Source: Yuukianura sp. NJ FZ-2021
Lineage: Eukaryota
Assembly: GCA_046563655.1 (NCBI GenBank)
Contig: JAJCTO010000010.1
Coordinates: forward strand, 930,001 to 994,000
Reading direction: 5' to 3'
Length of the DNA stretch: 64,000 nucleotides
The notes under the pieces: generated by a model
Database searches by the model: none
What the model was told of the DNA's origin: nothing
What the model saw: only the letters and a program-made list of their open reading frames with translations
Position numbers and translations under genes: made by a program
Shown here: positions 597 through 29,996 of the stretch, one piece after another
Position numbering within the stretch: the first letter of the stretch is position 1
Layout of the letters: each line of letters begins with the position of its first letter

Positions 597-2159
597 TTAG
601 ATGTGGTTGAGTAGATCCGTCGAACGCGACTGAGCAGTCGTGATGACTGGTGGGTCCTTATATACCTGTTGCTGCTCAGCTTGATTACCTTCGACTTCTG
701 GGTGCGGTCGCGTTAACAAAACCTGATAGAAGTGGGGTTCAAAAAAGTGGTTCTGTGCTCGACGTGTAGTATGGGAGTCTGGAAATTCTGGTTCGGAATT
801 ATGGTCGTGTGCCGTCACCATGTGGTGGTTCTGTTCGAGTACGGCGGGATAGAAGGGTTGGCTGGCCTGCTCCAAAAGTTGATCATGGGCTCCCCTCATG
901 TCTTCCTCTCCCTCATGATACAGAAAAATCGGAGGTCTGGAGCCATTACGGTGTGTTGTGAGCCCTGAATCGATGCTGTAATTTGGATAATTGTCCCATT
1001 GCGGGGAAATCGCCCAAGGATTGAGGCTGAATCGCTCCGGGTTTCCGCCAAAATTGTGAGACGAAGTTTTGGGGGTGACAGTTTCCTTATCAGCAGTTGG
1101 GACATATTCCCAATCCTGATCGGCTTCATTGGTATGGTACTGGACGGTGTGGGGTACGGATCCTGTCTCACAAGAGCTAATGTGTAAAATTTTTAAAAAT
1201 GACTGGCGTCCAAGTCGTACAGTTTCATACAGATGACGAAACTTCATATCGATGTGAAATTTTGCGGTGGTGTCAATTGTATCTTGTGTGGATGTATCCA
1301 ACTGGTTCGTCTCTTCGACTATTCCGCGACAAAGACCGAGTCTCGCTCCGCATGTGTCCACTTTGGTGTCCTGGTAATCCTGGACACTTAATCCAAATTC
1401 TGGACAAATGAGACTAGTGGGATTAATGTAGCATTCCGATGCTACTCGTTTCTGGAGCGTGCAGTTGGTATTCGCCTCGCCGTAGATTCGCCAAATAACG
1501 ACTCCGGTGGACGAGTAGCAAACATGGGAATCAAAAGGACAGTCGTTTTGTAAACCTTGTACATCGTGTGACCGAATAAATCCTGTGTATTGGTCATAGG
1601 AAATCTGTATTTCGGTGACGAAGTAGTTGACAATTCGATATCCCCAAGCTTTGGATGATCGGAACTGAGTGTCATTTGTTAAAAGTAGATTCTTTGTGCC
1701 ACGAGTGGTTTGGTTGATGGTAGACAATGGCCATCCCAGTGGATCAAATCCAGAGTTGATGAGATGAGCGCATTGATGCGGTTGTAAGTCGTCGGGTTTG
1801 GAAATGACAGTAGTTTTAAATGGCATCAGACTACTGGGCGTGCGAATGACCTCTGTTGTTTCCTTGACGCAGTGGTAGGCAGTAACACTGCGGGATGGGT
1901 GTTGAGTGCTCCAGAAAGCAGCGGAAACTAGAATGGAGTTCGAAAGTAAGTATGGGCAGGAGTCTGGCCTGGATTTCAAGACCCCCAGTGTCCAAATCCG
2001 GGGAGGCGGAGTAGGCTCCGTAGTAGTACTGTCAAGACGTTCGTTAATGTGTAAGATGTGATTTTCAGGATCAACATGCACCGCCAGGGCTCGGGTATCC
2101 GCTGTACTCCAACGGTACCAATTGCTAAGCACAAAAAGGGTAAGTAGTAACGGCGGCAT
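597..2159 (-). CDS. Env-like paralog 3: secreted, TM-less class III fusion-protein homolog
   Basis: Probable ATG at 2159 (MPPLLLTLFVLS signal peptide). The Cys pattern matches env: AYHC, QCAHL, VNYFVTEIQI, CPFDSHVCYSSTGVVIW, CTLQKRVASECYINPTSLICPE, helix HIDMKFRHLYE...SSC. The C-terminus is polar with no TM. Confidence 0.75.
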   Translation of the reverse strand: MPPLLLTLFVLSNWYRWSTADTRALAVHVDPENHILHINERLDSTTTEPTPPPRIWTLGVLKSRPDSCPYLLSNSILVSAAFWSTQHPSRSVTAYHCVKETTEVIRTPSSLMPFKTTVISKPDDLQPHQCAHLINSGFDPLGWPLSTINQTTRGTKNLLLTNDTQFRSSKAWGYRIVNYFVTEIQISYDQYTGFIRSHDVQGLQNDCPFDSHVCYSSTGVVIWRIYGEANTNCTLQKRVASECYINPTSLICPEFGLSVQDYQDTKVDTCGARLGLCRGIVEETNQLDTSTQDTIDTTAKFHIDMKFRHLYETVRLGRQSFLKILHISSCETGSVPHTVQYHTNEADQDWEYVPTADKETVTPKTSSHNFGGNPERFSLNPWAISPQWDNYPNYSIDSGLTTHRNGSRPPIFLYHEGEEDMRGAHDQLLEQASQPFYPAVLEQNHHMVTAHDHNSEPEFPDSHTTRRAQNHFFEPHFYQVLLTRPHPEVEGNQAEQQQVYKDPPVITTAQSRSTDLLNHI

Positions 2160-2245
2160 AGTCTTTCTGCATGCCACGGAGTTGAGTGTGAAGCGTTGGT
2201 GTCGCGAAAGCAAACTAACCGGAGGTTGGAGAGAGGAAGAAGTAT

Positions 2246-3253
2246 TTAACACTTTTCGAGTGGAACAGCGTGGATGACTGCAGGGGATAAATGCTGTAAA
2301 CTGGCATGTATGCGGGAGAAGTTAGTGTCAATTTGAAACTGGTCCAGACTGGAAGGACTGGGTGGGCTAGAGGGCTGTACGATGAGTCGAACAAACATAG
2401 GCCGACTGGATAACGGAGAAGATTGTAGTGCTGTTACTGCCACTGAAGATAAGGGGCAATAGATGGTGTGAAGCTGAACCAAGCAGAGGTGATCTAGGTG
2501 AAGATCTATCTGGCACTGTTTTCGTTGCCATGGCGCGGGTGTAGGTGAGACGCGGTTAAACAACACTCCATTAGGAAAAGGACAAATTGCTTGAGTAGTA
2601 CTACAATTAAAGATCGTAGTGTTAGAGGACGGGAGCACTAATGTGGAATTAGAAAAACGGTGTACGGTAGGAAGAACGAATTGTAAATGAATATCTTTGT
2701 ACACCGCTTTACTGCGTTGTTGGCTGTCGAATTCTGTTTGCAGGATTTGACTTCTGTCCTGGAAATGAAGGAGGCGATTTTGTGGCTTCACCCAGGTGCT
2801 GTATACGGGGGATAGGCTGCTGTGATTGTGGATTACACCAGGTGGCAAAATGTCATCAGAGATTATTGAAAGTGGGTTTCCATTCAGACTTTGAAACGTG
2901 TGGAGGGCATGCCAACAGTAATCAACGGGAATATTCTCGGGGGGATGTTCGTGGAAAGTGTGCACAATATGACCAGTAGAATTTCGTTCGATGGTGGTTA
3001 ACGTGTACGTACAAACGTACGCCCCTTGGGAAGTAAAAGACGGTGTAAATTTGATGATTCGTAACGTGGCGACATAAGTGTTGGCTAACAAAAAAGTTCG
3101 CGGGCTATGCAAATGGTAGGCTTTGCCGAGGGTCCAAATGGGTTCTGTATGCTGGAGATGGAAACGAGAGAATGCTAGACCGTACGGGACATAGGAAAAA
3201 CAGATATAGATTGTCGGTAGAAGGAAAAAATACTCGTAGGATAAAGTAAACAT
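2246..3253 (-). CDS. Env-like paralog 2: short secreted class III fusion-protein homolog
   Basis: Hydrophobic N-terminus. AYVCTYTLTT, YCWHALHTFQSLNG, CSTTQAICPFPNGVLF and CQIDLHLDHLCLVQLHTIYCP align with the env N-terminal half. The ORF ends around the central helix with no TM. Confidence 0.72.
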   Translation of the reverse strand: MFTLSYEYFFLLPTIYICFSYVPYGLAFSRFHLQHTEPIWTLGKAYHLHSPRTFLLANTYVATLRIIKFTPSFTSQGAYVCTYTLTTIERNSTGHIVHTFHEHPPENIPVDYCWHALHTFQSLNGNPLSIISDDILPPGVIHNHSSLSPVYSTWVKPQNRLLHFQDRSQILQTEFDSQQRSKAVYKDIHLQFVLPTVHRFSNSTLVLPSSNTTIFNCSTTQAICPFPNGVLFNRVSPTPAPWQRKQCQIDLHLDHLCLVQLHTIYCPLSSVAVTALQSSPLSSRPMFVRLIVQPSSPPSPSSLDQFQIDTNFSRIHASLQHLSPAVIHAVPLEKC

Positions 3254-3322
3254 AAAATAGGAAGTGTAGGAAGTTCCGATACGCGAGTCGTCTGGAAATA
3301 GTGTGATGGTGATAGGGGAGGC

Positions 3323-6181
3323 TTATTGTAGCTGGGGGTGTCCCGTCCAGAGAAAGCCGGAAAAGGGGGCCTGTTCCTGTTGGTTCACCGGATAGTAAAC
3401 TTGTCCCGCGAGAACTGCAGTTCGACCAGCCAGGGTGGAAGTGTACTCAGGGTTTGGATGAGATAAAGACTGATACGGTGGTAAAAAAGCATCCTCTTCT
3501 GTTTGTACCTCCTGATCATCTCTATTTGGGGCTGACGTCTCGAGATAATTCATTTCTATGGCGGCGACTTGATGATGGGTCCTGGGAGGAGTTGAGTGAC
3601 GGCTACAAATGTGTCGCCAGACTCTCCTCCCTGCGTGCATAATGTTTTGGTTGTACCGAACTGCACCGTACAACACTAAAATGAAAACAGTTAACGTCAG
3701 GAGGCCTGCGACTACGTTGGTTGCCCACCGTTTAATGGGGTCAAGGGTCCAGCTCTGTACGGCATCAGCTACTTGCTGTTGAGGCTCTGACCATTTTTGC
3801 CCTTGCATCCGCGCTTTAAAAACGTTGTCCACCGTGATTGGAGCCCGAAGTTGTCGTAGTATCGAGAGGAGTGACTCGGAACCCGTCGCTTGCCGTACTG
3901 CAATTGTGCCTGGATTTGAAAACGTAATGGCGGACAGCGGTTGATTCTGAACTTTATTAGTAAATGGAAGAGGTAAAACCGGCATTTGAATGGCAGTGGT
4001 AGTATCGTTGTTGAGAAGAAGCATTTTGGATCCGATATTGAAATAAAATGGGACCCGGTCTTCGCATGGGATAAATTCTGGTTCCAATGTTATGTGTCGA
4101 GAGAGTTGATTCAGATATCCGTCGACTTTCTGGTGATGGTAAAGAAATGTGATGGGCATATTCAAGGTACAATTTCCGTCTTCGTTTTGGGGTCGAAAGT
4201 GGTAGGAGTCAATTTCCTGGCATCGTGTCAGGGAGATGGCATCGCCATGTAATTTGGAAATGTAACGTTGATCTTTTAGTAATAGTCGAGCCACCACATT
4301 GGGATCGTTTTGTTCGGCTAGGTACGTCGCGACGCTGAGGATGGACTGTTGGTTGATACATGTTTGAAATACGACATTTTGAATGGCGTAGGTGACATTG
4401 TTGCGCAGCATATCGTAAAGATATTGTAAACGGCCATTTACGTGCGAGGCGACCAGGAGAGTGTCTTCGGTTGGTATGGGAGGCGGCCGTGGGGAGGTGG
4501 AAGAAATCATGTGTAAAATATCCTCATCTGTACCTTGATAGATGAGTGAGCCTTTGTAAGGGTACCGATGGGGCGGTGTTGGAAATTGGGGAAATGGGGT
4601 TCGAGACTCTGGTTCGGGCCTAGGACGTGCAGGTGGTGAACCCGAAACAACTGGCTTAGAAGAGGAATACGTGTGTACTGGTTCTATAGGTGGTGGGTTG
4701 ACTGTACTGCGTTCTGCCGAAGGAGATGTAATGAAGGTTGGTTTTGGGGTAGTTGAAGGAATAGTAGATGATGGCTCGTCAGGATTTGAACCCATCCATT
4801 CAGTTTGAATCGCAAGTTCTTCCTGAGGAGAAATCCTGCCCGCCGTCGGATTGTGACGAGTCGATTCGTCTTGTGCCGGTATGTGCGGTTTTAATGTGTG
4901 CGTTAGGGGAAGGTGTGTATGAAATCTGTGATTTTCCAGAGGTATTGGAATCGCAATGGGTAAGGAACCACTTTGGTCAATGTCCAGAATAGTGTCAGTA
5001 GTAGTAGAGGATATAGCTGGAATGGAATTAAGAGTAGAAAGTGAGTCAAAGGAAGTGGAAGGCCGAGATGTAGTCGAAAATGGTAACGCCTTTGGGCCAG
5101 GACCCAAATTAGTGCTGTAATCCATAATGAGAACATCCAGCGGATCTGTTGGAGCTGCTGTGGGTTGTAACTTGGGGAGGGGTGGTGCTCGTCTCCCCGG
5201 TCCATATCGAGTATCGGAAATAATAGAGAAGTCGTTAGTGTGTAGTGTGTCTCGTCTCTGGCGTGGGTATCGGTCAGCTAAGAGATGGACTCGTGTGGCT
5301 CGTTCGAAGTCTTCGGTACTGGACAGTGGAATAGGGAAGCTATCTGCGTGTACTGGTGAATACATGGCACCTCCTGCTCCGGTTCCCATCAACAAGTCAC
5401 AGTAGGGAATAGAGCGTATATTTGGAATGCTCATCGTAATTTCCGGGCATGATAAATGGTTTTCATTAGAAAGGATACAATCAGTTTGGAAGGCTTTTTG
5501 TATACGGCACGTTTTGAACAAATTACTAGACCAGACGATAACTGACCCCAAAATGCCAGGACAACTTTCCGCAGTGTAATCACATGAGGCAGCTAAAGGG
5601 ACTGGTGCGACAATACTAGCATCGAAGTTGCTGGCTGTGATGGTGATCGAAGAATAATAGAAATTGGTTACGCTTTTGGTTACAGTTTTGGGCCAAACGT
5701 AGTCAATGTCCACCACATGGGAGGTGCCCCAAAGGCCATCAGCAAGTGCTGTCATTGCTGATCCATCCGGAGATTTGGTAGTCTCAACCATTTTCATACA
5801 TTCGTCCCGTGTGACAACGCGTGGTTCCTCCCAGGAGTCCCGGGAGTGACTCAGCCAAAAGAAGTAACTTCGGGTTTCAGTAGTTGTGGTTGCCTTACAC
5901 AGCCATGCTCGCACAGAATGGCTGTTGGGGTTGTCGACCCATACCGTGATTGGCACAATCCGAGTCGGAGTAACAAGCTCAGCCAATTCGCATGTAGGCA
6001 TCTCGGGAAGGCGATAAGTAAGTGATCCAACGTTAGGGTCACAGAAGTAGAGTGTTGGTTGTTTCGGAGCTAAAGATGAAAAATAAACCCGATGTAACGC
6101 CTCATCTTCGGCAGAAGGGAGCGCACCGTGAATCGTGGAGAGGTGTAGAAGAAGAAGTAACTCGAAGAACAGAAGTTGCAT
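3323..6181 (-). CDS. env: Envelope glycoprotein, class III (herpesvirus gB-like) fusogen
   Basis: Signal peptide; aromatic putative fusion loops (SYFFWLS, DYVWP); furin site RYPRQRR; S/T/P-rich insert; gB-like motifs RLQYLYD...TC, ARLLL...LHGDAISLTRC, CTLNMPITF...GYL, FIPC...FYF; C-terminal TM VVAGLLTLTVFILVLYGAV. Lies directly 3' of pol. Confidence 0.85.
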   Translation of the reverse strand: MQLLFFELLLLLHLSTIHGALPSAEDEALHRVYFSSLAPKQPTLYFCDPNVGSLTYRLPEMPTCELAELVTPTRIVPITVWVDNPNSHSVRAWLCKATTTTETRSYFFWLSHSRDSWEEPRVVTRDECMKMVETTKSPDGSAMTALADGLWGTSHVVDIDYVWPKTVTKSVTNFYYSSITITASNFDASIVAPVPLAASCDYTAESCPGILGSVIVWSSNLFKTCRIQKAFQTDCILSNENHLSCPEITMSIPNIRSIPYCDLLMGTGAGGAMYSPVHADSFPIPLSSTEDFERATRVHLLADRYPRQRRDTLHTNDFSIISDTRYGPGRRAPPLPKLQPTAAPTDPLDVLIMDYSTNLGPGPKALPFSTTSRPSTSFDSLSTLNSIPAISSTTTDTILDIDQSGSLPIAIPIPLENHRFHTHLPLTHTLKPHIPAQDESTRHNPTAGRISPQEELAIQTEWMGSNPDEPSSTIPSTTPKPTFITSPSAERSTVNPPPIEPVHTYSSSKPVVSGSPPARPRPEPESRTPFPQFPTPPHRYPYKGSLIYQGTDEDILHMISSTSPRPPPIPTEDTLLVASHVNGRLQYLYDMLRNNVTYAIQNVVFQTCINQQSILSVATYLAEQNDPNVVARLLLKDQRYISKLHGDAISLTRCQEIDSYHFRPQNEDGNCTLNMPITFLYHHQKVDGYLNQLSRHITLEPEFIPCEDRVPFYFNIGSKMLLLNNDTTTAIQMPVLPLPFTNKVQNQPLSAITFSNPGTIAVRQATGSESLLSILRQLRAPITVDNVFKARMQGQKWSEPQQQVADAVQSWTLDPIKRWATNVVAGLLTLTVFILVLYGAVRYNQNIMHAGRRVWRHICSRHSTPPRTHHQVAAIEMNYLETSAPNRDDQEVQTEEDAFLPPYQSLSHPNPEYTSTLAGRTAVLAGQVYYPVNQQEQAPFSGFLWTGHPQLQ

Positions 6182-6319: not shown

Positions 6320-9300
6320 TCAAAATTTAGAATAAGTAAGGCGATCCGGTGGTTTGGTGATCCTACGTGGTCGAGAGATTTCTCGCAACTGACACGACTC
6401 TGGGGTTTGTTGCTCAGATTTATCAGGATTGGAGTCCGGAGGAGAGGAGTTGAGGATAGGAGAAGGTGGAGGTGACTCTGAAGACATTGGAATGGCATGC
6501 GACCCTTTTTCTGACCATAATTCCTTGTGAAGGTCAGACTCCACATTTTCCATCTTATCCTCAGGTAAAGCAATGTCTGAAGCAGACAGACCTGAGCAAC
6601 GTGCTTGTTTCTGAAACCCATATTGCTCGGTTTTCAAGAACGTTAAAATTCGGTCCTTATGTTTGGATTGCGTTAAAATATGCATAAGACCCCCAAAAAC
6701 GGAAATATACATTCGATGATGCATTGAAGAGAGCAATAAAATGGAAAGAAAACACTCTTCCCAACCTTCGCCAATAATTAGAACGTCGGTAGACAGTAAT
6801 TTGTCTCGAAGTTCGATATATTTCCGGAGCGTGATCGGATTAACTATTTGATGAATAAAGAGACCCTCTGGAGTGGTCACTTGGACTTTAGTATTATTAG
6901 ATTTATGGACGTTAAACGTTATAGGGTGTGCAGAATTAATAAGAATAATATCAGTGAGCTTGTGTGTCAAACATAGTTGTAAAATTTGATCATCAGGAAT
7001 GCGCTCGTCAGTAACTTGTGCGTTTAAAACAAAGAAGTGGACGGGTAGCGTGCTACCGGCCAAAATATCGGTGGTGTGTCCCCACTCTTGAATTTGAAAG
7101 ATATATTCAATCAACTGATCGAAACATAGAATATCCTCTAGAAATTGTTCTGGGTCAACCATGATCTCTAAGGATTCTGTTTCCATTACATCGTCAATAC
7201 TAATTAGGCGCATTCGTCTTACGTGTGTCTTAAACTGTCTACCTGTAGTCGAACATTTGACGAGGTAGACATCCGGTCCCAGCTTCTGTAAGACTTCATA
7301 GGAACCCCAGTAGTAAGCAACCCATTTGGTGGTTTGTCCCCTCTCCCCTTGGCGTGGATATGTCAGGCGCACTTTATCTCCCACTTTGTAAAATACGGGC
7401 ATTCTGAACTTGTTAGCTTGTTCTTGGGTTTTCCTCTGCTGTTCTGCAATAGCAGTCCGGATTTGGGACCATAATTCTTGAAACGTCTGTTGTTTAGTGT
7501 AAAGGTCCCGATTGTCGATCTCCAACGGAGATGTGTATGGAAAAGTAGGTTGTTGATGAAACATGAGGGAGTGAGGAGAGTGGTATTTTAAAGATTTTAA
7601 AGGGGCCGTATTAAGGCAAAAATTAACATGACGTAAATTCTGTGACCAATTACTATGATTGTCGTTGACAAAACTGCGAATGATGGAATGGCATGTGGAG
7701 TGTGTACGTTCGGCCAAGGAGTTACCAGTTTTGCCATAATAAGTAACGTGTCTAATGCTTGTACCAAAAATTTGAGTAAAAGCCTTCAAGAATTCAGAAG
7801 TGTAGGAGCTACCGTTATCCGTATAAATGATACGTGGAGTAGAAAACCGCAAAAATACTTCATTTTCCCAAAATTTAGCAATGTCGGAAGACCGGATCTT
7901 TTTCAATGGGGCTAAGATAGTATATTTAGTCAGAAGACAGACCATGTTAATAATATATATAAAACCATTACTTGCCGCGACTGGTCCTAGAATGTCTGAT
8001 GCGCAACATTCCATTGGATAGTTACCGACAGGCAACTCACCCATCAACCCAGGTATCTTACCATAATGCCGCTTCATCTTACCGCATTTTTCACATGCTT
8101 GGATATGGTTAAGTAAATCTCGTTTCTGTGATGGCCAAGCATAAGCTCGAGAGAGACGTTGATACGTTTTCGTGAACCCCATGTGACCTGATATAATATT
8201 GTTATGAACTTCGTTGAGGATACATTTGCGTTGGACTACAGGTACGTAAACACGACTGAAGCCCTGACGCATGTCGTACAGAATGTCGTCTTTAATGATG
8301 TATCTGGCTCTGGTGTGAATATCATTTTTTAACCAAGCGGTTTTGATGCGAGTACATTCGGCGTCTGCGAGTTGTAGGGTTTTCCAATCAAATGAGTTGG
8401 TTTGACCAATCCATTCACTTTTAGCATCCCCCTCCTGAGTAAGAAAAATCTCGTGAACAAGGACTAACGCATCTGGAAGTATCGCACTATCCTCCGTGAG
8501 TGCATCGGACGGTGCTCGACTCAACATATCGGGAAAATCCATATTTCTACCTCGCCGATATTTGAGGTCGTAAGTATAACTCATCATAATAACAGCCCAT
8601 TTCGTAAGATCCCTGTTCCAGCGTTTAGCTGGTGTCAAGGAACTTTTAGCTTGCACCAACGGAAGAGAATCGGTAATGATTGTAAACTTGATATCCGAGA
8701 GGTACATATGAAAAACCGAACAACAAGTGACAATGGCATACATTTCTTTCATGAATGCTGGAAAATCTAACTGACGTCCTTTAAGCAGTGAGGAGTGATA
8801 AGCGACTGGTACTTCTAAGTCATCAACTGTCACTTGAATCAGTATGCCGCCAATACCAATATCACTGGCATCTGTGTACAGTCGCGTCTCCCTGTTTCGG
8901 TCAAACCAATGTAGTAATGGAGGGGAGGCTAACACTTTTTTAATTTCGTCAATTCTATCCTCATGAATTTTGTCCAATTTAAATGGTTTATCTTTCCGCA
9001 AAAGCTGGTACAAGGGCTGTGTGAGACTGGAAAAGTTTGGAATACTTCGACGAAACCAGTTAAAGCTGCCCAGAATCCGTTGTAACTTCTTAACTGTTGT
9101 GGGGTACGGGATTTGTTGAATGGCTTTCAACTTTTCAGGATTATGTCGAATGCCCTCCCTATTGACCAACAGCCCTAGCAATGGAACTTCAAAATAACCG
9201 AAGTAACACTTATGGATCGCTAATTTGACCCCATAGGCTCGTAGCCTTTCAAATGTTCGACGTAAATCAATTAAATGATTTGCCCAGGAATCACTACCCA

Positions 9301-11143
9301 TAATTAAATCATCAATGTATAGTACGTTATGAACCATCAAGGTGTCGCCTAGAACCATATACATACAGCGCGTAAAGGATTGGGGCGCAGTGCTAATTCC
9401 AAATGGAAGGTATTTGAAGGCAAATGTACCTTTAGGTGTACAAAAACCTAAATATTGAATACTATCGTCTGCAACGCGAATTCCCCAATATCCTTTCTGC
9501 AAATCACAGGTTGAATAGAAAGCGTGCCGAGTTTGTAACCATTCTAAAATAGCTTCCACACTAAGCATTGGAAACTCGATGGGAGCAATAATGGAATTGA
9601 GTACAGAGTAGTCGACACAGAAACGATAAGATTTAGTGCCATCGGGCTGAGTATGCCCTGGGACTAACACGGTACGTGAGACGTAATTGGTATTACATGG
9701 TACTATCCGTTGGTGTTTGAGTAATTCGTCAATTTGTTTGTTTTCGAACGCTGTCATTTCTGGCGTTCGCCGAGCTGGTTGGTTTCTGAAAGTATGCGCG
9801 TTAGGGCGAAGAATGACGTGATGTACGTAATTTTTAATTTCACCGATTTCTTTCTGATAAGCAAAAACATCTTTGAACTCAACCAAAAGGTCCTGTAACT
9901 GCACCTTTTGAGTTGAGTCTAAATCTGGGTTAATTCGTGCAATTATACGATTCACATGTTCCTCCATCAATTTTGGTGGTAAGTCGAAAATACTAAAAGT
10001 CGGTAGAGTCTCATCAATCCTTTGCTCGTCCATACTGGGAATGGATTCCGTTGTGGCTGCGTTAAGATTCACCAACGTGGAAAGACCGTGTGGACTCTGT
10101 AACTCACTGGGGAGGTGCGGACCGTCGCGCCAGTGCTCTTCCGTATCCTGGCCGTGGATATCGGAAAAGGTTTCATTGCAAATCGCGTTGCAATCTTCCC
10201 GGGGAATAAACTCTTCGCTGTCTGTCGACAAACACGATTCAGGGACCCTTGTATAAACCATGTTTGAAGTTTCAGCGGTACACTCAAGAAACTCTGTGAT
10301 ATGTGGCTCATGATCATCATCATTGTGGGTCATCATGCTCGTGTTCGGTTCAAAACCATGTAGGTTAGGAGTTACAGATCGACCAGCTGCGGATTCCGTC
10401 GAACCAGCATCCTGGGAGTCACAACCCACATGATTTTTAAAAGGTACCTGAGGGGAACCAGAGCATGGGAAAAAGGGGAACAGCCTGGGCTGTGTAACTT
10501 TCTTGTCAACAATTTTCAACGTAAAAACGGCACATCGGAGTGAAGCTTCGTTATCGCGTAAGGGAATCATTTGTATTATTGTGCCTTTCCAACTGATAAT
10601 TAAACGGTCGAAATCGATTATAACACGTTGGTTTCGTAGGAAATCGTTTCCCAGTAGGACTTGTAGAGCGAAATTTTTTACAACAACCATGGAGTGAAGT
10701 ACCTTTTGTGCATCAATTTGTATAGAAATGTCAGCCATTCCGAGTGAGGACGTAAGGGTGTCACCAATACCTTTCAGCATGACTGTGCGAGCCATCGGCT
10801 GAATACTACTATTGTTAACTAACTGTGAACTAATTACGCTAACTTCTGCCCCTGTATCCAACATTATTTCTGTTTGGTGTTCGTCGGCATAACCACATAC
10901 TTTCAGAAGACCATTCGTCCCCATCTGCAAAACAAACATGGAATTCGTGTCATCGGTTTGGAGAACGGGAGCTGTGTATGTAGTGGAAATTGCGTTGATG
11001 GTCAATGGCTGACTTATGGAGTGTAGCTGGTGTTGAGAGAATTGATCAGTGGGTCGGTAGGGATAGCATTGGGTTTGCGGCTCTGTGGTGATGGAAGGGA
11101 CGGATGGGGGGTGGCCGCATACCCCGTCCCTTGGTTGTTTTTT
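6320..11143 (-). CDS. pol: Ty3/Gypsy Pol polyprotein (PR-RT-RNaseH-IN plus C-terminal extension), entered by -1 frameshift
   Basis: LDTGAEVS protease; RT motifs RFCVDY, DLQKGYW, LPFGISTAP, YIDD; RNase H LYTDAS/KEMYA/TDS; integrase HHCC, SDILGP, TDNGS, AER, GSY. The frame is uninterrupted. Confidence 0.95.
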   Translation of the reverse strand, partial: KKQPRDGVCGHPPSVPSITTEPQTQCYPYRPTDQFSQHQLHSISQPLTINAISTTYTAPVLQTDDTNSMFVLQMGTNGLLKVCGYADEHQTEIMLDTGAEVSVISSQLVNNSSIQPMARTVMLKGIGDTLTSSLGMADISIQIDAQKVLHSMVVVKNFALQVLLGNDFLRNQRVIIDFDRLIISWKGTIIQMIPLRDNEASLRCAVFTLKIVDKKVTQPRLFPFFPCSGSPQVPFKNHVGCDSQDAGSTESAAGRSVTPNLHGFEPNTSMMTHNDDDHEPHITEFLECTAETSNMVYTRVPESCLSTDSEEFIPREDCNAICNETFSDIHGQDTEEHWRDGPHLPSELQSPHGLSTLVNLNAATTESIPSMDEQRIDETLPTFSIFDLPPKLMEEHVNRIIARINPDLDSTQKVQLQDLLVEFKDVFAYQKEIGEIKNYVHHVILRPNAHTFRNQPARRTPEMTAFENKQIDELLKHQRIVPCNTNYVSRTVLVPGHTQPDGTKSYRFCVDYSVLNSIIAPIEFPMLSVEAILEWLQTRHAFYSTCDLQKGYWGIRVADDSIQYLGFCTPKGTFAFKYLPFGISTAPQSFTRCMYMVLGDTLMVHNVLYIDDLIMGSDSWANHLIDLRRTFERLRAYGVKLAIHKCYFGYFEVPLLGLLVNREGIRHNPEKLKAIQQIPYPTTVKKLQRILGSFNWFRRSIPNFSSLTQPLYQLLRKDKPFKLDKIHEDRIDEIKKVLASPPLLHWFDRNRETRLYTDASDIGIGGILIQVTVDDLEVPVAYHSSLLKGRQLDFPAFMKEMYAIVTCCSVFHMYLSDIKFTIITDSLPLVQAKSSLTPAKRWNRDLTKWAVIMMSYTYDLKYRRGRNMDFPDMLSRAPSDALTEDSAILPDALVLVHEIFLTQEGDAKSEWIGQTNSFDWKTLQLADAECTRIKTAWLKNDIHTRARYIIKDDILYDMRQGFSRVYVPVVQRKCILNEVHNNIISGHMGFTKTYQRLSRAYAWPSQKRDLLNHIQACEKCGKMKRHYGKIPGLMGELPVGNYPMECCASDILGPVAASNGFIYIINMVCLLTKYTILAPLKKIRSSDIAKFWENEVFLRFSTPRIIYTDNGSSYTSEFLKAFTQIFGTSIRHVTYYGKTGNSLAERTHSTCHSIIRSFVNDNHSNWSQNLRHVNFCLNTAPLKSLKYHSPHSLMFHQQPTFPYTSPLEIDNRDLYTKQQTFQELWSQIRTAIAEQQRKTQEQANKFRMPVFYKVGDKVRLTYPRQGERGQTTKWVAYYWGSYEVLQKLGPDVYLVKCSTTGRQFKTHVRRMRLISIDDVMETESLEIMVDPEQFLEDILCFDQLIEYIFQIQEWGHTTDILAGSTLPVHFFVLNAQVTDERIPDDQILQLCLTHKLTDIILINSAHPITFNVHKSNNTKVQVTTPEGLFIHQIVNPITLRKYIELRDKLLSTDVLIIGEGWEECFLSILLLSSMHHRMYISVFGGLMHILTQSKHKDRILTFLKTEQYGFQKQARCSGLSASDIALPEDKMENVESDLHKELWSEKGSHAIPMSSESPPPSPILNSSPPDSNPDKSEQQTPESCQLREISRPRRITKPPDRLTYSKF

Positions 11144-12621
11144 GGCTGAGCACGGCAATCTGCATCACTGTGTTTGGTTGACTGATGAAATGAACACCAA
11201 AGGCCATATGCTTCCGGTCGTCGACTCATGCCATTATCGCTGCGATGTCGAGAACAGTTCTGGTCGGAATGCCCACTAGTGTTATGATAGGTGCAAAACT
11301 GTCGCGGCGTGCCTGGGGCCCGACAGTTGCTCGCGATGTGGCCAAGCTGGGAACAGCGGTTGCAGCGGCGACGAGGGCACTGTGCACTAATATGATTGGG
11401 GTCGTTGCATACGTAACACCGCCGAGCTAATCCATTTCCGCGGGCTGGGTTACCCTGCCCACCACCACGGGATCGTAACGGCTTCGAATATCCCCCAACT
11501 CGGGTATTTACCCCGAAGTGTTCAGCAGTGGTGTAATCTGGTGGCGTCGGTTGTGGCTGAAGAGAAGTAGATGTGCCCTCGTTGTGTTGCTTAACAATGT
11601 ATGTATGCATCTCTTCGATGATGCGTCCAAATTTATCCAATTGCTCTGTCTGTCCCGCCAGGACCGCTGGAGCTTGGGTCATAACATTGACATCTTTCTT
11701 GTGTAAAAGTAGCTCATTTGTTTCTTCAATTGATTTCATCGCTTTTAAGAACTCGTCGATACTTTGCGGCTTCTGTGCTCCAAGAGCTGTCAAATTGGAT
11801 GGACGTAAATTGCGGATAAGCCAACGTACTTGGCGGGATTCTGGCATATCTGGGTCCATCTGTCGAAGGACATTGGTCAGATCGTAAGTATATTCCGTAG
11901 CAGATTCGTTCAGATGTTGACGTCTATTAATAACTTTTTGTTCAGCTGACATAGTACTAGTGTTGCCAAATGCTTTGATGAGAGCTTGTTCCACCATGCC
12001 GTAGTCAACTAACAGGGCGGGGGCTGGTGGTGATGTTGAACATCGAGTGGATTCCAAGAACGAAAAAAGCCAAGCTTCGGCAGTACCGGTTAAATGATTA
12101 CTCAGCAAAATCGGCCATTCAGATCGTGGGATTGAGTTCCCGGTCATCGCTAATTGGAACTTGGTGAGGTACCGCATAACATCCTCTCCAGGTTTGCCGC
12201 TGAACGTCGGTACCTTAATTTTATAATGTGTTTTGCCGGAGTCGGACTTAGCTCCGACCGACGTTGACGCTTGGGACATTGTGATTGGAAGATTGTGTAA
12301 ACCTTGGAATGGTGTTGTAGGGAATGGTAATGAAGTGGGGATGTGCGTAGGTGATTTGGGGTCACTGAGGGTGGATGGAAAGGTTACTTGAGGGAGAGGT
12401 AGCGGTGAAGGGATGTAGGGGGGTGGGTTCGAGGGGTTAAGTGAGGTTTGGGAAGTGGCTTTCGGGAGAGGTGGGGCGCTAGGAATAGTAGACGGCAAAA
12501 CTACCCGAGGTTGTAAGTTCAGTTTCCCCTTGTGTTGTGAAAACGCGGGAGTTTGTGATTGTTCGGTGTTAGGATGAGGAGGAGGTGATGGGACAGAGGA
12601 CCGTGTAGTTATCTTGGGCAT
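11014..12621 (-). CDS. gag: Gag with Pro-rich N-terminus, capsid domain and four zinc knuckles
   Basis: Capsid start KVPTFSGKPGEDV; two CCHC knuckles (CYVCNDPNHISAQC, CNRCSQLGHIASNC) and two CHHC knuckles (CTYHNTSGHSDQNC, CSFHQSTKHSDADC). Overlaps pol. Confidence 0.93.
   Translation of the reverse strand: MPKITTRSSVPSPPPHPNTEQSQTPAFSQHKGKLNLQPRVVLPSTIPSAPPLPKATSQTSLNPSNPPPYIPSPLPLPQVTFPSTLSDPKSPTHIPTSLPFPTTPFQGLHNLPITMSQASTSVGAKSDSGKTHYKIKVPTFSGKPGEDVMRYLTKFQLAMTGNSIPRSEWPILLSNHLTGTAEAWLFSFLESTRCSTSPPAPALLVDYGMVEQALIKAFGNTSTMSAEQKVINRRQHLNESATEYTYDLTNVLRQMDPDMPESRQVRWLIRNLRPSNLTALGAQKPQSIDEFLKAMKSIEETNELLLHKKDVNVMTQAPAVLAGQTEQLDKFGRIIEEMHTYIVKQHNEGTSTSLQPQPTPPDYTTAEHFGVNTRVGGYSKPLRSRGGGQGNPARGNGLARRCYVCNDPNHISAQCPRRRCNRCSQLGHIASNCRAPGTPRQFCTYHNTSGHSDQNCSRHRSDNGMSRRPEAYGLWCSFHQSTKHSDADCRAQPKNNQGTGYAATPHPSLPSPQSRKPNAIPTDPLINSLNTSYTP
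11095..11143 (-). promoter_or_regulatory. -1 programmed ribosomal frameshift signal
   Basis: A AAA AAC heptamer (11143-11137) in the gag frame, followed by a 9-bp stem AAGGGACGG/CCGTCCCTT. Pol is in the -1 frame. Confidence 0.88.
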
Positions 12622-15613: not shown

Positions 15614-17410
15614 TTAAATTCGGGGGCATTTGATCATCCGGTCACAAATTTGGCCCTCGATTACCCGTTTTAATACCGGCCTCGATGCGGTTGCTACCTG
15701 GTACCGCTCGAGGCGGTGTCTGTCCGCTTGGGAAAGCGGAGGTTGCAGATGGTTCAATTTAACGACTGCGTGTGGCATGCTGCGTTTGATCATTTGCGCT
15801 CCTTTAACAGTTAGTTGAGCACAGAAAATGGTTTCGAAGTAAGAAAGGTTGAGTCGAGTCGCGAGGGTAACAAGGCTTAAAGAAGAGAATCCATAACCTT
15901 TTAAAGTCAAATGACATAGCTGGGGACAATCTAACAGTCCAAAGTAAATGGCACAACTAGTCAGAAACTTGGAGCTCAAATACAGTTCCTTCAGTTGCAG
16001 GAGCTGGGAGAGTCGAGGGTTGTATTTATGTCGGTCTAATGAGTAAATTTGTCCGTCTGTCATGAGTTCCAGGGCGGTCTGCATCAGCTTCTGGTCGGTT
16101 CCAGTTATAGCTTCATCATCATAAAGGCCATCATTGGCTATCAGCGTGGTTAAATTAGGAAGGGACGTAATCACTGCTCGGAAGGCCTTGTTGGTCAAAA
16201 ACCGGATATTCAATGTGCGCAGGTTAGGAAACCAGGAGCCCCAGGTGCGTATAACGATTGGAAGAACCTTGTATTCGGGTTCAATTTGATCAATAAGTAG
16301 ACTGTGCAATGATATGTTGGGAGTTGGGGGATCACGGGAGTAGAAATGATTGCTTAGGTTACGCGCCTTCCGAAGTGTGAGAGAAAGCAAATTAGGGATT
16401 CGATGTATAAATTCCAGTACGTAGAGAGGGTGATAAGAAATGAATTCGAGGGAGGTGAGGTGAGTGAAATTTTGAAGATATTTAAAATGTTCTAGCCTGC
16501 TAACATTAGCTCCGGTTTGATAGTCGACAGCATATGTGAAGTCCATTATTAGTGTCGTCAGAGTGTGACAGTAACTATTGACAAGTGTGTGAATGGAGAA
16601 AGCCGATTGCCTTTGTGTTATTACCCAACTTAATTTAGTTAGTGGGAAGGATCGGTGCTTGAGTTGGTCCGGGTGTGTCCAAGGGTGGAATGGTAAATCA
16701 AGGTGCTGGAGGCGTGGAAAGTAGTGGTCTTCCATACTTAAAACAGCGTCGAGGATAGGTGATGTGTTGGCAGAAGCTCGTATTGGCTCCTCCACGATAT
16801 GGCCGAAGAGATCCGTATGCGTTGGCTGGTATGGATTTGTGGAAAGGAATTCCACATTGGGCATAGAAGAGAAGAGGAAATGAAGGAAATTGGTTTGTTG
16901 GGTCCGTTGGATTAGAGTAAAAATTGTATCATAATCTAACGTAATACGTACAGTGTGAACCTTATTTAAAATTCTTCCAGATGTCGGCACTTTGGTTTTA
17001 AAGATATTAGGTGTAGGGAGAGTGCCGAGTGTGAATGATAGTTTGGTTAAATTAGGCAAAAAGTGAAAAGCTAAAGTTGGTATTAAGACAGTCCACGTGG
17101 GCTTAACGAGATCCAATGTTGTAACATGGATGCCGATGGTTTGGGCCAGGCTGATTTCGAAGCGTAAGCCAGACAAGAACCGGAGGTTGCAGGGTCTCGG
17201 GTGGGTACGTAGGAGGTCACGTGCTTGGTCCTCATTACTAATGCAAATGGGGTGGGCTCGCCTACTCAAGACGCGACTAACTTCCTTATTCCAGAGCTTC
17301 GAAACTTGCCGGCATGATTTTAACTCGGCCATGGAAAAGTACATCAGTAGTATTTCCAACATCTCTGGAACCCGGAGGGGGTTTGTTTTTCCTTTATGTA
17401 CCACTTTCAT
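15614..17410 (-). CDS. F-box / leucine-rich-repeat protein (598 aa, intronless CDS)
   Basis: N-terminal F-box (NPLRVPEMLEILLMYFSMAELKSCRQVSKLWNKEV) followed by many LxxLxxLxL repeats (LPNLTKLSF, FPRLQHLDL, FPNLRTLNI, CPQLCHLTL). Acceptor TTTCTACAG just upstream of the ATG. Confidence 0.88.
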   Translation of the reverse strand: MKVVHKGKTNPLRVPEMLEILLMYFSMAELKSCRQVSKLWNKEVSRVLSRRAHPICISNEDQARDLLRTHPRPCNLRFLSGLRFEISLAQTIGIHVTTLDLVKPTWTVLIPTLAFHFLPNLTKLSFTLGTLPTPNIFKTKVPTSGRILNKVHTVRITLDYDTIFTLIQRTQQTNFLHFLFSSMPNVEFLSTNPYQPTHTDLFGHIVEEPIRASANTSPILDAVLSMEDHYFPRLQHLDLPFHPWTHPDQLKHRSFPLTKLSWVITQRQSAFSIHTLVNSYCHTLTTLIMDFTYAVDYQTGANVSRLEHFKYLQNFTHLTSLEFISYHPLYVLEFIHRIPNLLSLTLRKARNLSNHFYSRDPPTPNISLHSLLIDQIEPEYKVLPIVIRTWGSWFPNLRTLNIRFLTNKAFRAVITSLPNLTTLIANDGLYDDEAITGTDQKLMQTALELMTDGQIYSLDRHKYNPRLSQLLQLKELYLSSKFLTSCAIYFGLLDCPQLCHLTLKGYGFSSLSLVTLATRLNLSYFETIFCAQLTVKGAQMIKRSMPHAVVKLNHLQPPLSQADRHRLERYQVATASRPVLKRVIEGQICDRMIKCPRI

Positions 17411-22194: not shown

Positions 22195-22551
22195 TGATAA
22201 GCGAATGTCGTTGTCGTTGGATCTGTACGAATTACGAGCATATATTTTGATGTAATTTGAATGGGGTAGAAATAAACTTTGAGTCGAATTCGGAAGAGAA
22301 TAAAACACTACGGAACACGTAATGTACTCAAAAATTATTGGCGCTATGTGAAGTTATTGTGGCTATTAATAATAGTTGGCTTGGAAACCTTTGTACGGAT
22401 CGCGTGTAAGTGGGTATTTCGTGTACTAATGTTAACAGAATGCAGCCCAAATTCTTGACCACTCCTGTGTAACCCTGAATATTATAACATTAGAAGCTAA
22501 TTATGGAAAGTGCTGATTCATGTATGTTCTTGTTTGTTTGCAGAAAGTGCA

Positions 22552-25110
22552 ATGGGCCGTTCCCGCAAAAACAATCGTCAAACCGCAGATCCGCTACTGA
22601 GCTATAGGGGGTCGAGTCTGGAGAACTCTAACCCGTCCAGCAGAGAGAGTTCCCCGTTTCCTGTTCTACGGACCCTACTCAGCGCGCCCGGAACAATTAC
22701 TCGGCAGGTGAACATCATACCGCGTCAGAGGGGCACTGTAGGGCATAAGACAGTCAAGCAGACGGTAGTTAACCAGAATGACTCTAATTTGCCCATTACG
22801 ATCCTCGTGCCCAGGAATAACGGACCCAACCATCCACTACACGGTGGAAAAGTTCCTCGGGGAACCCCGATCTTATGTCCATCGCCCTCCACTGCCTCTT
22901 CCATAACTTCTCCCCCTCAATCGCCCGCTATTGGTAGTGCTCCTCGGACTCTAATGGACGAGGAAAGTCTGCCGGATGAATTGTTGTCTGCGTAAGTATT
23001 AATTTAGGCGAGTGGGGCGCGTGATTATTGACCTCTAAGAACTTGTTGATAACTACAGAGATACCATGGGATTGGAGGCTTCTACATGGAGACCGGCGCA
23101 GTCGGGTGGGGATTCGACCTCCACGCACCCAGCTGCAGATGATCTACTTTTTAGCCGTGCAGAATTACGTGTCATCGAGTACATGAAGTACTTCTTCCTC
23201 CCACCAGATGACCCAGCGAAATATAGAGGGGACTCGGTCACGAAGTCGTCGTGGGACTACAACCTCCTGCCACCCTTGCGTACTAGAGGATACGGCATGC
23301 AAATTGCGCGATTAATTTGGGGAATCCTGATGCCCTTCCTGACTCACGACCCCGATGTTTTGTTTAGAACGGTAAGTTGTATGTAGTCCCTCCTCCAAAG
23401 GGCGTTGCTAAATTTCTTTTTCTGAACTAGTTGAACCGCCTGCGAGGATGTTTACTGCAAGGCTACACAACTGATGAAGAAAAACGATTCTTTGCTGACG
23501 GGATTCTACACTGGGGATTCCGGTATACTGAAACCCATGGAACCTCTGGCAAAGACCTAATCCGAAAAATTTGTGAGGTAAGAAACTATTTACATGAATC
23601 AAAGTAAATCACATGTAATCCTATGATAACTATTTATGAACTGTCAGTGGTTAATTTTCTGCCCACGGCTACGGGAGGTCCGCATTGCCCAACGACGCAA
23701 TGTTCCAATTCGATGGGAGTCGTTCATGTCTGGCCGATTATTTTGGCATATTCAAGACGACCTGACGACTCTTAACAGCCGTTTTATAGGAAACGTCAAT
23801 TGGAAGGCCCCACCTCACAACTACTTTGAGATGTTTTCTGCTTGCCGTACCATGATTCGCGGCTTAGGAATTCGTTATGTAAGTAATGTAACGTGATTAC
23901 CCTGAGCAGAAATGTAGAGTGGTGCAACCTGACGAATACATTGATGATATTATGATTTTTGCAGCATTTAGTGGACGGAATTGAGAGACGTATCCAGGAG
24001 GAGTTTCCAGTCTCCAACACACCGTTACAACTTTCCAACGAGAAGATGGCATCCGCCAGCGGATTTTTACGAAAATTGGCGGGAATCATCCGAGATCGTC
24101 TTTTAAATCCAAACGTAATCCCTGATTGTGAACAAGACATCTACAACTTAGTGTCAATCTGCCCCGTATTACGAAAGGGTCAAGTGATGAGCAAGAATTT
24201 CTCCATCATGTAAGTACAGATAGATTGCCTCCGTCATCAATGTAAGTTGAACATTGGACTGGAATGAAACCACTACAACGTTTTCCGTTGGATCAGGTTC
24301 TGGGACACATCAGCCAACCAAATGCGATCGCTGGACACCCTGGATGAGACGCATGAAGAGATGAACCGAGAAGGATTTACCTACTATCGCTGCGACTTTT
24401 TAGCGGGCCGAAACAGCACACCAGAGATCTTAGCGGTTCCTCACTTTTTGGACATTGATCTGCCATCTTATCTAAAGTGCAGTCCGATCCATGACCCTAG
24501 TCGTTGGTTCTGTGGGTTCTGCGAAGCGGAAAATCACGCGAAAAGTCATTTTCCTGGAATTGCCAACGATCAACCTCCCAACACTTTTGATGACACGGAA
24601 GTGTGGAGGGAACACGTTCGACATCATCTGTCGGTTCCGAGAGTTGTACAAGCTTGCCCGTGTGACCGAGTTTCGGGGGTGGGGCGTGGAGAATGGCATC
24701 GCCATGTTTGTGTAGCGACCTGCTTATGCGGAACACCATGCAATACCGTAAGTTTAAATGAACGATTCGATCCTGCGGAAAATCTAAACCAATCCATCAT
24801 TGAATACTAGGTGGAAGAGCGGATCGAACATAGTTATAAACGACTGGAACGGAAGACCAAAACCCGAGGGTGCTGGTATGACTCGATTTGCAAGCGGAGG
24901 TTCCGAAGTGAAGCTGACCTGTACAGTCATCTTGCGTCCGATTGCGCTGTTTGCTACCGGTGTCATGAGGAGTTCAATTTGGAGAAAGAAAGTCGCGTAC
25001 AACATTTAGATCGCTGTTTCGCCTGCAGTTTTTGCGGAATGGCCCACGGCTCACAAACCGAGATGAATCAGTGTCCCATTAATTGTTTGAGACGTACATT
25101 CTATTTGTAG
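22552..25110 (+). CDS. Seven-exon gene, 708 aa, with Cys/His-rich (zinc-binding-like) C-terminus; function unknown
   Basis: Exons 22552-22991, 23059-23371, 23431-23577, 23648-23878, 23965-24209, 24297-24747, 24811-25110. All six short introns are GTAAG...AG with matching phases, giving 2127 nt in frame. AATAAA at 25220. Confidence 0.85.
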
Positions 25111-25249
25111 GTTACATTTAATTGCACGCAATATTTTTGTGTTAAAGTTGCGTCGCGGTTCGGTGGGGGTTCTAAGTAGATGGTGGTGGGTTTGTAGATT
25201 ACACAATGATAACAATTTTAATAAAGAAAAAAAAAAATTTTAATTCTAC

Positions 25250-25260
25250 CTTACCTTGTG
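25250..25260 (-). promoter_or_regulatory. Candidate major splice donor just downstream of the PBS
   Basis: CACAAG|GTAAG on the minus strand (intron starts at 25254), about 40 nt after the PBS. Confidence 0.55.
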
Positions 25261-25294
25261 CCGTAATATCACCTTTGAGCTGGGTAGAAAGTCA

Positions 25295-25312
25295 ATCCGG
25301 TTCGAAGGACCA
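25295..25312 (-). promoter_or_regulatory. Primer-binding site, tRNA-Tyr type
   Basis: TGGTCCTTCGAACCGGAT, 3 nt after the LTR end GTCACA. It is complementary to the typical eukaryotic tRNA-Tyr 3' end (...CCGGCUCGAAGGACCA) with one mismatch. Confidence 0.9.
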
Positions 25313-25315
25313 TTA

Positions 25316-25696
25316 TGTGACCTCTCATCCTGGGTGAACCAGGACTCAGGCCGCATACGTCGCCGCGTAACAGACGGACTACTGGCTGCTTGACCTCTGT
25401 GCCCAGGTCCGAACCCCACCGAGGTGGCGCAGGTCCTGGGTGCCAGCTCTACGGATCATGGCCGCAGAATATGGCTCAATGCCATCACAAAGGAAACAGT
25501 AAACGAAGGGAACGTGTGGCTACTCTCCTTTATTGCTTGTAGAATCTCCCTACTCCAGTAACTGGACGTCACCGTGACAGGCGCTGGGAAGAGGAGCTAT
25601 CTCGAGGACAACTCCTCCTCAACCGAGCGCTCTCTACTCACTGACTGACCATCGGGATATGACTGAGAACCTAGCCTCATCCCGAGTGCCGTCACA
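25316..25696 (-). repeat. Long terminal repeat (381 bp), 5' LTR of a minus-strand element
   Basis: 6-bp inverted termini TGTGAC...GTCACA; AATAAA at 25534-25529; immediately followed by the PBS. Confidence 0.8.
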
Positions 25697-26065
25697 CACC
25701 CCTGCTTGGAGACGAAGTGAGGAACCCCGCCCGGTGGGGTTACTCACACTAAAACCTGATAAAAAAGTTCAACATTAGTTCATAAGTGCACTGAATTTCA
25801 CTAAATGCGGAAGACAGAATAGTAGATGTTCAACCTTTAAGATTTCAAAGATTTTAACTGAAATTATCAGAGACGTAATCAGTTGTCTTAAGCCATGCGC
25901 ATGAAGATGTGGTAGTATTCCGGATGGGAATGTTTGACATGTCACTGTAGTTTAACTGAAAATAACTATCTTAATCCCAAGCTCACAAGGAAGTTAACCT
26001 AATTAGCAATTAGTAAGAAGAATCAAAAACTTTAGTAAATGAGTTAGGAACTCTATTACGTTTAG

Positions 26066-26335: not shown

Positions 26336-26474
26336 GCATACGGGCAGGGCATCTGTTCTGAAGATTAGGACATAGTACTCAGGGGTAGCGAGCTAGAACA
26401 GTAAAATAAACAGAATATTGTAAAAACAATAGACTAAAGACACGTCATTTTCAGAATTCAAAATTGTAAAACCC

Positions 26475-27278
26475 ATGTCATTGAACGGCCTCCACAACCT
26501 GCCAGCTGGATTCATAGACGCAGTTCGAGAAAGAAATCAACCAAATCAGCGGTACGAGAGAGCGAAGTTTCTCGCCTCGAGGAGTGTAATCGAGTTGAGT
26601 CTCCTCAAAGACTGTTTTCCCGAACTAAAGGAACTGATAGACAGTTTGGTCAAGACTACTAAGCTCGCCTGGAAACCACTGATCAACAAGCTAGAAATCT
26701 GGATTTGGGAAGATCCACGCTCTACTTATAGGTACCAGCTGACTCACTGCAGACACGAGCTAATCTACAGATTCGCCCAGATTAGAATCGATCGATTCCC
26801 GCTAACTCTCGTGTCATTCGTCCGACACTGTGAAGGAATACTTGATCTTGGGATCAAGACAGACGAGTTCCTGCGACTTGGCTTACAGGAAAAGCTAGAA
26901 CTAACTCACTTCACCACCATACACATCACCCGTCAGCCAGGAGCTCCACTAACTGATTTTCGGACCGACAGTCTGATATTAGCTGTAACTCGACGACCCT
27001 ACCGACCATACTGCTTCCGAGACTTGGCCGACATCCTTCACTGCAACAGCGGACGGAGGGAAGAAGTAAAGTACTTCTTCAGTCTTTACGAAACGGAGAA
27101 AATCATTTACTGGAGTACGCTGTCTGAACGCCAAGTCCAACGCCGAGAAAAGACAAAGGAGACTCAGGAACGCAGAGGGTTGAGTACAGACGACCAGCTC
27201 ATCGACGAAATTTGTATCGCAGGCGACGCTTACGCCGAGACTTGCGACGACTACTTGGAGTCAGATAAGGAAAACTAG
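26475..27278 (+). CDS. Cassette copy 1, gene A: unknown protein, possibly degenerate F-box family
   Basis: 267 aa; close paralog of 31120-31923; weak similarity to the 21235 protein (FPLTLVSFVRH..ILDLGI vs SPMTFLSIVMY.SRFDLSI). Confidence 0.8.
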   Translation: MSLNGLHNLPAGFIDAVRERNQPNQRYERAKFLASRSVIELSLLKDCFPELKELIDSLVKTTKLAWKPLINKLEIWIWEDPRSTYRYQLTHCRHELIYRFAQIRIDRFPLTLVSFVRHCEGILDLGIKTDEFLRLGLQEKLELTHFTTIHITRQPGAPLTDFRTDSLILAVTRRPYRPYCFRDLADILHCNSGRREEVKYFFSLYETEKIIYWSTLSERQVQRREKTKETQERRGLSTDDQLIDEICIAGDAYAETCDDYLESDKEN

Positions 27279-27301
27279 TTTCATTTCATTTTCCTTTCAT
27301 A

Positions 27302-28213: not shown

Positions 28214-28374
28214 TAATTTTTCTTTCTCCCAGAAAAAAACAAAAACTATAATGTATATTAAATGGGACTAATCATAGATTCATAGGTAGTCAGTAATTTT
28301 AGAATGGGGTTAAAATGAAAACTATTCATGTTTAATTTTTTTTTATTGACTTATTTATTTTCACCATAAGAAAA

Positions 28375-29802: not shown

Positions 29803-29996
29803 AATTTTCCATTTGTGCACCATAAGAGTTAAACTTACTAAATGGAGTTACTTAAATACTTGGATAGGGTAATATCATGATTTCCTTTTATCAGTTCAGG
29901 CTTCAAGTTCATGTCATCAAAGTTTTAGACTAGGTCAGATCCACCACCAATGTTAATGTTAGGTTGTACAATTTTGGGGATCAAATAAGCTAGTTA

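Follow-up and report, generated by a model that had tools for sequence, protein, structure and literature searches.

The 64,000-nucleotide stretch of DNA analyzed here (G000:C10:930001-994000, the window) carries on its minus strand a young Ty3/gypsy element of 27,559 bp (27.6 kb) and, on the opposite strand, a predicted zinc-finger gene which lies antisense in the leader of the element, between the PBS and gag (Table 1). Paired LTRs, a TSD, a tRNA PBS, the series gag-protease-RT-RNase H-integrase and a gB-like env past pol place this carrier among the gB-type errantiviruses. The PBS matches the 3' ends of two host tRNA genes plus CCA, for which the ARAGORN anticodon output was 'gt' only; we take this tRNA to be that for Tyr. 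A host gene with a nested LTR was also considered and was ruled out for the window copy by the LTR pair, the TSD and the PBS.

The leader, which extends over 12.7 kb from the PBS to gag, contains the zinc-finger gene, an antisense companion ORF and a sense F-box-like gene. A word-seeded protein search with the companion ORF returned no homolog at E ≤ 0.001, which is a weak negative. The strong splice donor on the element's own strand is a candidate major donor of the element RNA, and AG acceptors occur upstream of the F-box ATG and the env ATG on the same strand; given a donor just past the PBS, the antisense cassette may lie within an intron of spliced sense RNAs. This donor motif was found opposite the 3' end of the gene, within 300 nt, in 7 of the 12 own-genome copies and was missing in 5.

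Several other features were observed in and around the element. The two ORFs past env are possibly env paralogs, with weak tblastn cross-matches to env in relatives. TTAGG-type repeats, the telomere unit of arthropods, occur within the leader at 13116-13170 and are likewise inserted near 455-480 in the homologous gene of metagenome contig L093. Outside the element, a duplicated pair (an unknown ORF and a dUTPase) surrounds a 3'-5' exonuclease-like ORF at 26433-32865 (plus strand), and a similar exonuclease ORF interrupts gag in an element at C10:1.064 Mb. A LINE is present at 33169-36051 (minus strand), and positions 36500-56000 hold an array of palindromic repeats of approximately 400-600 nt that is interrupted by a BEL/Pao polyprotein (42344-47626).

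Table 1. Features of the carrier element and of the predicted antisense gene (window positions unless a contig is named).
Feature	Position	Strand	Remarks
5' LTR, 433 bp	25316..25748	-	TG..CA
Partner LTR	G000:C10:928190-928622		99.3% identical to 5' LTR; TSD CTAAA flanks both element ends
PBS	25294..25312	-	complementary to host tRNA 3' end plus CCA
Strong splice donor	25250..25256	-	AG/GTAAG; 38 nt past PBS, element's own strand
F-box-like gene in leader, sense	15614..17410	-	F-box-like start (E 0.023, below cut-off), leucine-rich body
gag	11014..12621	-	Ty3 capsid-like, CCHC knuckles
pol	6320..11164	-	protease, RT, RNase H, integrase (Pfam)
env, gB-type (class III)	3323..6181	-	PF24664 E 3.6e-11, passing its cut-off; PF00606 E 4.6e-8, below its own
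Two further ORFs past env	597..3322	-	no Pfam match
Companion antisense ORF, 319 aa	21235..22194	+	weak F-box-like stretch, E 0.32, below cut-off
Possible 5'-UTR intron	22406..22543	+	putative; GTAAGT..GCAG, both sites kept in second copy
Coding exon 1	22552..22991	+	basic start; Ser/Pro/Thr/Arg-rich; probably disordered
Coding exon 2	23059..23371	+	second half is start of conserved part
Coding exon 3	23431..23577	+	central domain; no Pfam match
Coding exon 4	23648..23878	+	central domain
Coding exon 5	23965..24209	+	extra phase-0 intron within exon in relatives
Coding exon 6	24297..24747	+	CxxC..H finger and CxC..H..C..C cluster; extra intron in some relatives
Coding exon 7	24811..25110	+	three compact C2HC/C4-like fingers
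Stop codon TAG	25108-25110	+	end of exon 7
Poly(A) signal AATAAA	25220..25225	+	antisense gene

The predicted gene and its protein

In order to predict the gene from the sequence, six GTAAG words were taken as donors and every AG located 40-140 nt downstream was tried as an acceptor. From the ATG at 22552 this splice-combination search reproduced the model of the initial annotation, in which six GTAAG..AG introns (67, 59, 70, 86, 87, and 63 nt) join seven exons into a plus-strand frame of 708 codons. This frame was the longest among 8064 acceptor combinations, and in five of the six introns the acceptor was the first AG at least 40 nt past the donor. Across 22552-25110 there are seven GTAAG words on the plus strand and none on the minus strand; identical splice rules applied to the reverse strand gave a best frame of 114 aa, and 100 donor-preserving shuffles gave longest frames with a median of 102 and a maximum of 243 aa. 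A splice artefact is ruled out by these controls together with the selection measured against a second copy and the junctions of a C5 homolog, both described below. We regard the seven-exon model as almost certainly real. Additionally, the GTAAGT donor at 22406 and the AG acceptor at 22543 suggest an extra, non-coding first exon, and the AATAAA, which had been placed about 70 nt from the PBS, was measured at 68 nt from it.

The first 175 residues begin with a basic stretch, consist to 42% of Ser, Pro, Thr and Arg, and are probably disordered. The many Cys/His clusters noted initially (CGFC..H, CPC..HxHVC, CYRC, CSFC) are all present in the spliced protein, but only the last 190 aa, with 19 of the 27 Cys and 13 of the 25 His, show such clustering. 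Structure and Pfam searches covered single exons, and exon-by-exon scans gave no Pfam match for the central region. In exon 6, nine positions do not vary across nine sequences, seven of them Cys/His; exon 7, also compared across nine sequences, keeps 11 Cys/His unchanged. The structure model of exon 6 was poor (pLDDT 51.8; structure search Z ≤ 2.4), while that of exon 7 reached pLDDT 72.8 and gave no PDB or BFVD fold match at E ≤ 0.001. For exon 7, Pfam returned a weak zf-C2H2_4 match (E 0.0072), the PDB sequence search placed C2H2 arrays on top below significance (best E 0.0037), and the ESM Atlas neighbours belonged to the C2H2 clan, under the recognition mark. Taken together, these searches suggest a weak but consistent resemblance of exon 7 to tandem C2H2-class fingers. 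A classical C2H2 DNA-binding array has TGEKP-type linkers, whereas the fingers predicted here have C2HC/C4 ligands and stand two residues apart.

The gene is copied with its element and is under purifying selection

A second full copy of the element, at C3:5.70-5.73 Mb, is approximately 95% identical along most of its length. Its LTRs are 99.8% alike, it is flanked by the TSD AGTAG as opposed to the CTAAA of the window copy, and it keeps all six introns with the 708-codon frame open; a third copy, at C3:8.20 Mb, is truncated and frameshifted. Between the two full copies the gene shows 51 synonymous and 27 non-synonymous differences (pS 0.105, pN 0.0165), which gives a dN/dS of 0.146 over 708 codons. 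For the same copy pair the values of the neighbours are 0.121 for pol, 0.128 for env, 0.281 for gag, and 0.182 for the companion ORF. The introns differ at 44 of 417 sites (0.1055) compared with a pS of 0.1054, and hence drift at the synonymous rate, while the exons carry zero indels. Only in the predicted frame were the changes mostly synonymous (50 vs. 25 codons). The gene is copied with the element and is under purifying selection.

These two young insertions, with distinct TSDs and six introns each, bear out the earlier statement that the introns persist through transposition. Because the RNA that is packaged is the opposite strand, neither the antisense introns nor the poly(A) signal is recognized in it, and both survive reverse transcription. 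The persistence of the introns can be explained in this way, and the strand bias of AATAAA, with 4 on the genomic-RNA strand and 19 on the antisense strand of window positions 1-25315, fits the same explanation. LTR elements are usually annotated as intron-poor, with extra genes past pol; here, in a natural case, a backwards gene of six to eight introns has outlasted repeated reverse transcription, and selection on it is as strong as on pol. It offers a natural system in which to study how introns are lost or gained, and intact spliced genes can travel within genomes by this route.

Homologs and their position in related elements

Searches with exons 6 and 7 located at least 15 distinct homolog loci in the genome, which split into a type A that includes the window gene and a type B, about 30% apart in the finger region. 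The companion ORF accompanies the type-A copies and is duplicated in the C5 element. The homolog at C5, which encodes 721 aa in nine exons, is 43.6% identical to the window gene end to end; window introns 2-6 lie at the same residues and phases in it, while intron 1 differs. Furthermore, the C5 homolog has two additional introns, splitting the equivalents of window exons 5 and 6 (near 24126 and 24453), and match spacing implies the extra exon-5 intron in four other relatives as well, which suggests that this intron was probably lost cleanly in the window lineage. That two introns of relatives are cleanly absent from the window gene is an instance of intron loss or gain within an antisense gene borne by a retroelement.

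The 3' ends were surveyed at the 12 of 15 loci which retain the last exon, with the fragments C4:10.889, C4:10.779 and C7:5.259 excluded. At 11 of the 12, a PBS-like site and LTR start occur on the opposite strand approximately 60-700 nt past the stop, as judged by eye, with some of the PBS-like sites degenerate. Two metagenome contigs show the same arrangement: L092, with exons 6-7 including the exon 6/7 intron, has the PBS-like site and LTR start about 1150 nt further on, and L093, with exons 6-7, about 650 nt further on. The remaining metagenome loci of the five examined (L094-L096 of L092-L096) gave no convincing match and were dropped. The expectation that homologs always lie beside an LTR and PBS holds for 13 of the 14 ends and fails at one, the copy at C2:3.294 Mb, which has no PBS within 2.5 kb.

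A HMMER profile search of 1.84 billion representatives returned three hits and no named cellular homolog. P0001, whose contig is L092, and P0003 match the Cys/His pattern; P0002 is repetitive sequence and was dropped as a homolog. Word-seeded protein searches with exon 6 and the exon-7 alignment gave no match at E ≤ 0.001, and these are weak negatives.

The 145 RT matches in the genome include seven elements at an RT identity of at least 50%. Five of these seven carry the gene antisense between gag and the PBS, and two are without it despite having both LTRs; the elements across which the gene is conserved have RT identities of 51-66%. Additionally, an RT-deleted family whose LTRs are 80-83% like those of the window element is without the gene in the three members examined, and its LTR pairs are 99.5-99.8% alike, indicative of recent mobility. 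These gene-free relatives indicate that an element does not require the gene in cis and may be able to dispense with it. An element at C3:8.133-8.143 Mb with LTRs 99.2% alike has no gag or pol and retains a type-B gene. The locus at C3:7.44-7.46 Mb, where the closest remnants of gag and env share the strand of the gene, is rearranged or nested and uninformative on orientation to gag. From the spread of carriers and the position of the gene, we consider it very probable that a lineage of large Ty3/gypsy elements with a gB-type env has long borne it as an accessory gene.

Two further observations concern gene-free relatives. The RT-deleted family (G000:C9:107363-117367, C5:827305-837259, C4:8834342-8850881, and five more LTR pairs) shares with the window element the LTR plus 134 nt past it, with the antisense cassette absent. 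A related element at G000:C3:8175684-8181356 (RT 50%) has a leader with two paralogous sense CxxC ORFs and no zinc-finger gene.

Candidate roles, origin and comparison with known systems

The strong donor past the PBS and the acceptors before downstream ATGs mean that the 27-kb RNA must sometimes escape splicing. In the role that we propose, the gene would be driven by its own internal promoter, and its 708-aa protein, with a disordered basic N-terminus, a central domain and a zinc-finger C-terminus, would act in trans in the nucleus on behalf of the element. There it would bind the element's own RNA or its site of transcription, and the 27-kb genomic RNA would thereby escape splicing, retention or silencing. 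We give slightly better than even chances to the explanation as a whole, an old element-borne accessory gene that acts as a nuclear trans regulator. A role like that of Rev or CERV would be its single most likely form, an assignment we make tentatively. In either form the gene is a testable candidate for the regulation of a 27-kb retroelement RNA.

An alternative that we judge unlikely is a counter-defence adaptor, in which the fingers would attach to protein or ubiquitin and, together with the leader's pair of F-box-like genes, direct host silencing or restriction factors to degradation. Both F-box-like genes are under selection in the same leader, the fingers are two residues apart with no TGEKP-type linker, and P0003 matches Zn-C2H2_12 (E 0.0018). 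The sub-threshold fold matches of exon 7 include Cep104, TAX1BP1 UBZ and TRAF arrays, and domains related to ubiquitin and apoptosis are present in the Burro elements of planarians (PMC6431247, available text). However, these fold matches are not significant, both F-box matches are below the Pfam cut-off, and no F-box or companion ORF match was found beside the type-B copies.

Quite unlikely is an HBZ-like brake, whereby the protein or a convergent antisense transcript would dampen the 5' LTR and keep the element latent. The transcript heads toward the 5' LTR with its predicted end 68 nt from the PBS, a position kept at 13 of the 14 ends; the top sequence matches of exon 7 are DNA-binding C2H2 arrays, and a dual protein and dsRNA role has been proposed for plant antisense ORFs in the available text of PMC7264820. 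However, selection acts on the protein, and the last exon shows no shortage of synonymous differences (10 of its 99 codons vs. 50 of 708 overall); both position and domain class are unlike those of HBZ.

As to origin, capture of a host gene by the elements, once or repeatedly, with the C2 copy as its resident form and the element copies kept as cargo, is highly improbable in our view. The C2 copy (G000:C2:3293831-3296322; L054, L055; minus strand) is a type-B homolog whose exons are open and bounded by GT..AG. A PBS was looked for within 2.5 kb and gag, pol and env over 48 kb, all with negative result; its neighbours, judged from their translations, are presumably host genes. In the tree it has a short branch and joins the B side at a fork left open, and an AU test did not reject a grouping of the element copies apart from it (p 0.26) and so does not place it inside them; tree and test were both computed without the fragment row C4:10.889. 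Against capture, the C2 copy is nearer to the type-B element copies (46-62%) than to the window gene (29%) and is without their long N-terminal region, the profile search gave no named cellular homolog, and a domesticated or orphaned element copy would explain the C2 facts equally well. The C2 copy may have been domesticated or may itself be the donor gene, and an ultimate host origin is compatible with an element-borne accessory gene. The initial annotation had named a conserved host ortholog at a TE-free syntenic locus as a finding that would speak against it, and on this point it does not come through cleanly, with one intact-looking, distant homolog at C2. Its phrase 'a true intron-containing cargo gene' stands as regards a real spliced antisense gene, but 'cargo' is too weak given the conservation across elements and in metagenome contigs.

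It is scarcely credible that the gene is what is left of a Plavaka/CACTA-like DNA transposon with introns, nested in the leader: among the ESM Atlas matches of exon 6, at 0.94-0.96, are clusters of Plavaka (45% of members) and Transposase_21 (15%), but Atlas recognition is 2038, under the tool's mark of 2300, no exon has a Pfam transposase match, no inverted repeat among the 25 longest of 33 brackets the gene, and its position against the PBS is fixed in diverged elements.

Returning to the nuclear trans regulator, a broader generalization is conceivable, though somewhat unlikely in its entirety: giant invertebrate errantiviruses may follow a two-strand genome plan, in which a spliced sense programme (gag, pol, env paralogs, F-box) would be paired with an antisense, intron-rich regulatory cassette ending at the PBS. 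The zinc-finger gene would then represent a new class of retroelement regulator which controls the export or silencing of genomic RNA and loses introns within the element, and which the host has domesticated on one or more occasions.

Antisense accessory ORFs in plant gypsy elements, mostly past pol, and giant gypsy elements with extra domains in planarians are already known, as far as the available portions of the sources go. Our literature search, made among mostly open-access papers and their main texts, turned up no description of a multi-intron gene lying antisense between the PBS and gag. The gB-type errantiviruses have the layout LTR-PBS-gag-pol-env with a herpes-gB-like env and young copies (Chary and Hayashi, eLife 2026, PMC13524379). 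In the part of that paper available the layout is shared, whereas the window element adds its 27.6 kb size and a gene-bearing leader of 12.7 kb; LTR pairs more than 14 kb apart were left out of the survey, and neither 'antisense' nor 'accessory' occurs in the main text as available. An antisense position in the 5' leader is missed by ORF-based and by length-capped surveys. The Burro planarian gypsy elements exceed 25 kb and have env and extra regulatory genes, including ubiquitin-related ones (PMC6431247), but their extras are mostly polyprotein domains, where that of the window is a separate antisense gene, and 'antisense' does not occur in the available text. The accessible part of PMC5408684, on the bdelloid ORF3s, contains no passage on introns.

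HBZ and APH-2 of the deltaretroviruses are, like the window gene, antisense regulatory genes within a provirus. HBZ is a bZIP protein from the 3' half of the provirus. Exon-wise scans of the window gene gave no Pfam match to bZIP, and zinc-finger motifs are present instead. Whereas the antisense promoter of HBZ lies inside the 3' LTR (PMC7264820, available text), the ATG of the window gene stands in the 5' leader, some 24 kb away from the 3' LTR, so that the analogy with HBZ drawn initially is a loose one.

In plants, Ty3/gypsy elements carry additional antisense ORFs, namely gene23 of Grande, RIRE2, and TRP28 of Retand (PMC7264820; PMC11963269). As described in the available text, these are likewise antisense, family-wide, conserved like pol, under their own promoter (here putative) and of unknown function, with the Grande protein nuclear. 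The window gene agrees with them in orientation and conservation (5 of the 7 close-RT elements; dN/dS 0.146) but not in position: the plant genes are ORFs mainly in the interval between pol and the 3' LTR, whereas here an animal gene of six to eight introns lies in the 5' leader. Additional ORFs upstream of gag also occur (PMC7264820, in part). The word 'intron' is absent from the available text of PMC11963269, and single-exon scans of the window gene gave no Pfam match to TRP28 (PF04195) or an SMC domain.

The closest parallel to the proposed function is CERV of the C. elegans element Cer1, a spliced accessory protein needed for the export of unspliced genomic RNA (PMC10309623). According to the available text, CERV is, like the window gene, a spliced, Cys-rich and lineage-restricted accessory gene of an animal gypsy element; it differs in being sense, in having exons in common with gag and in ending in the env position, whereas the window gene is antisense and separate from gag.
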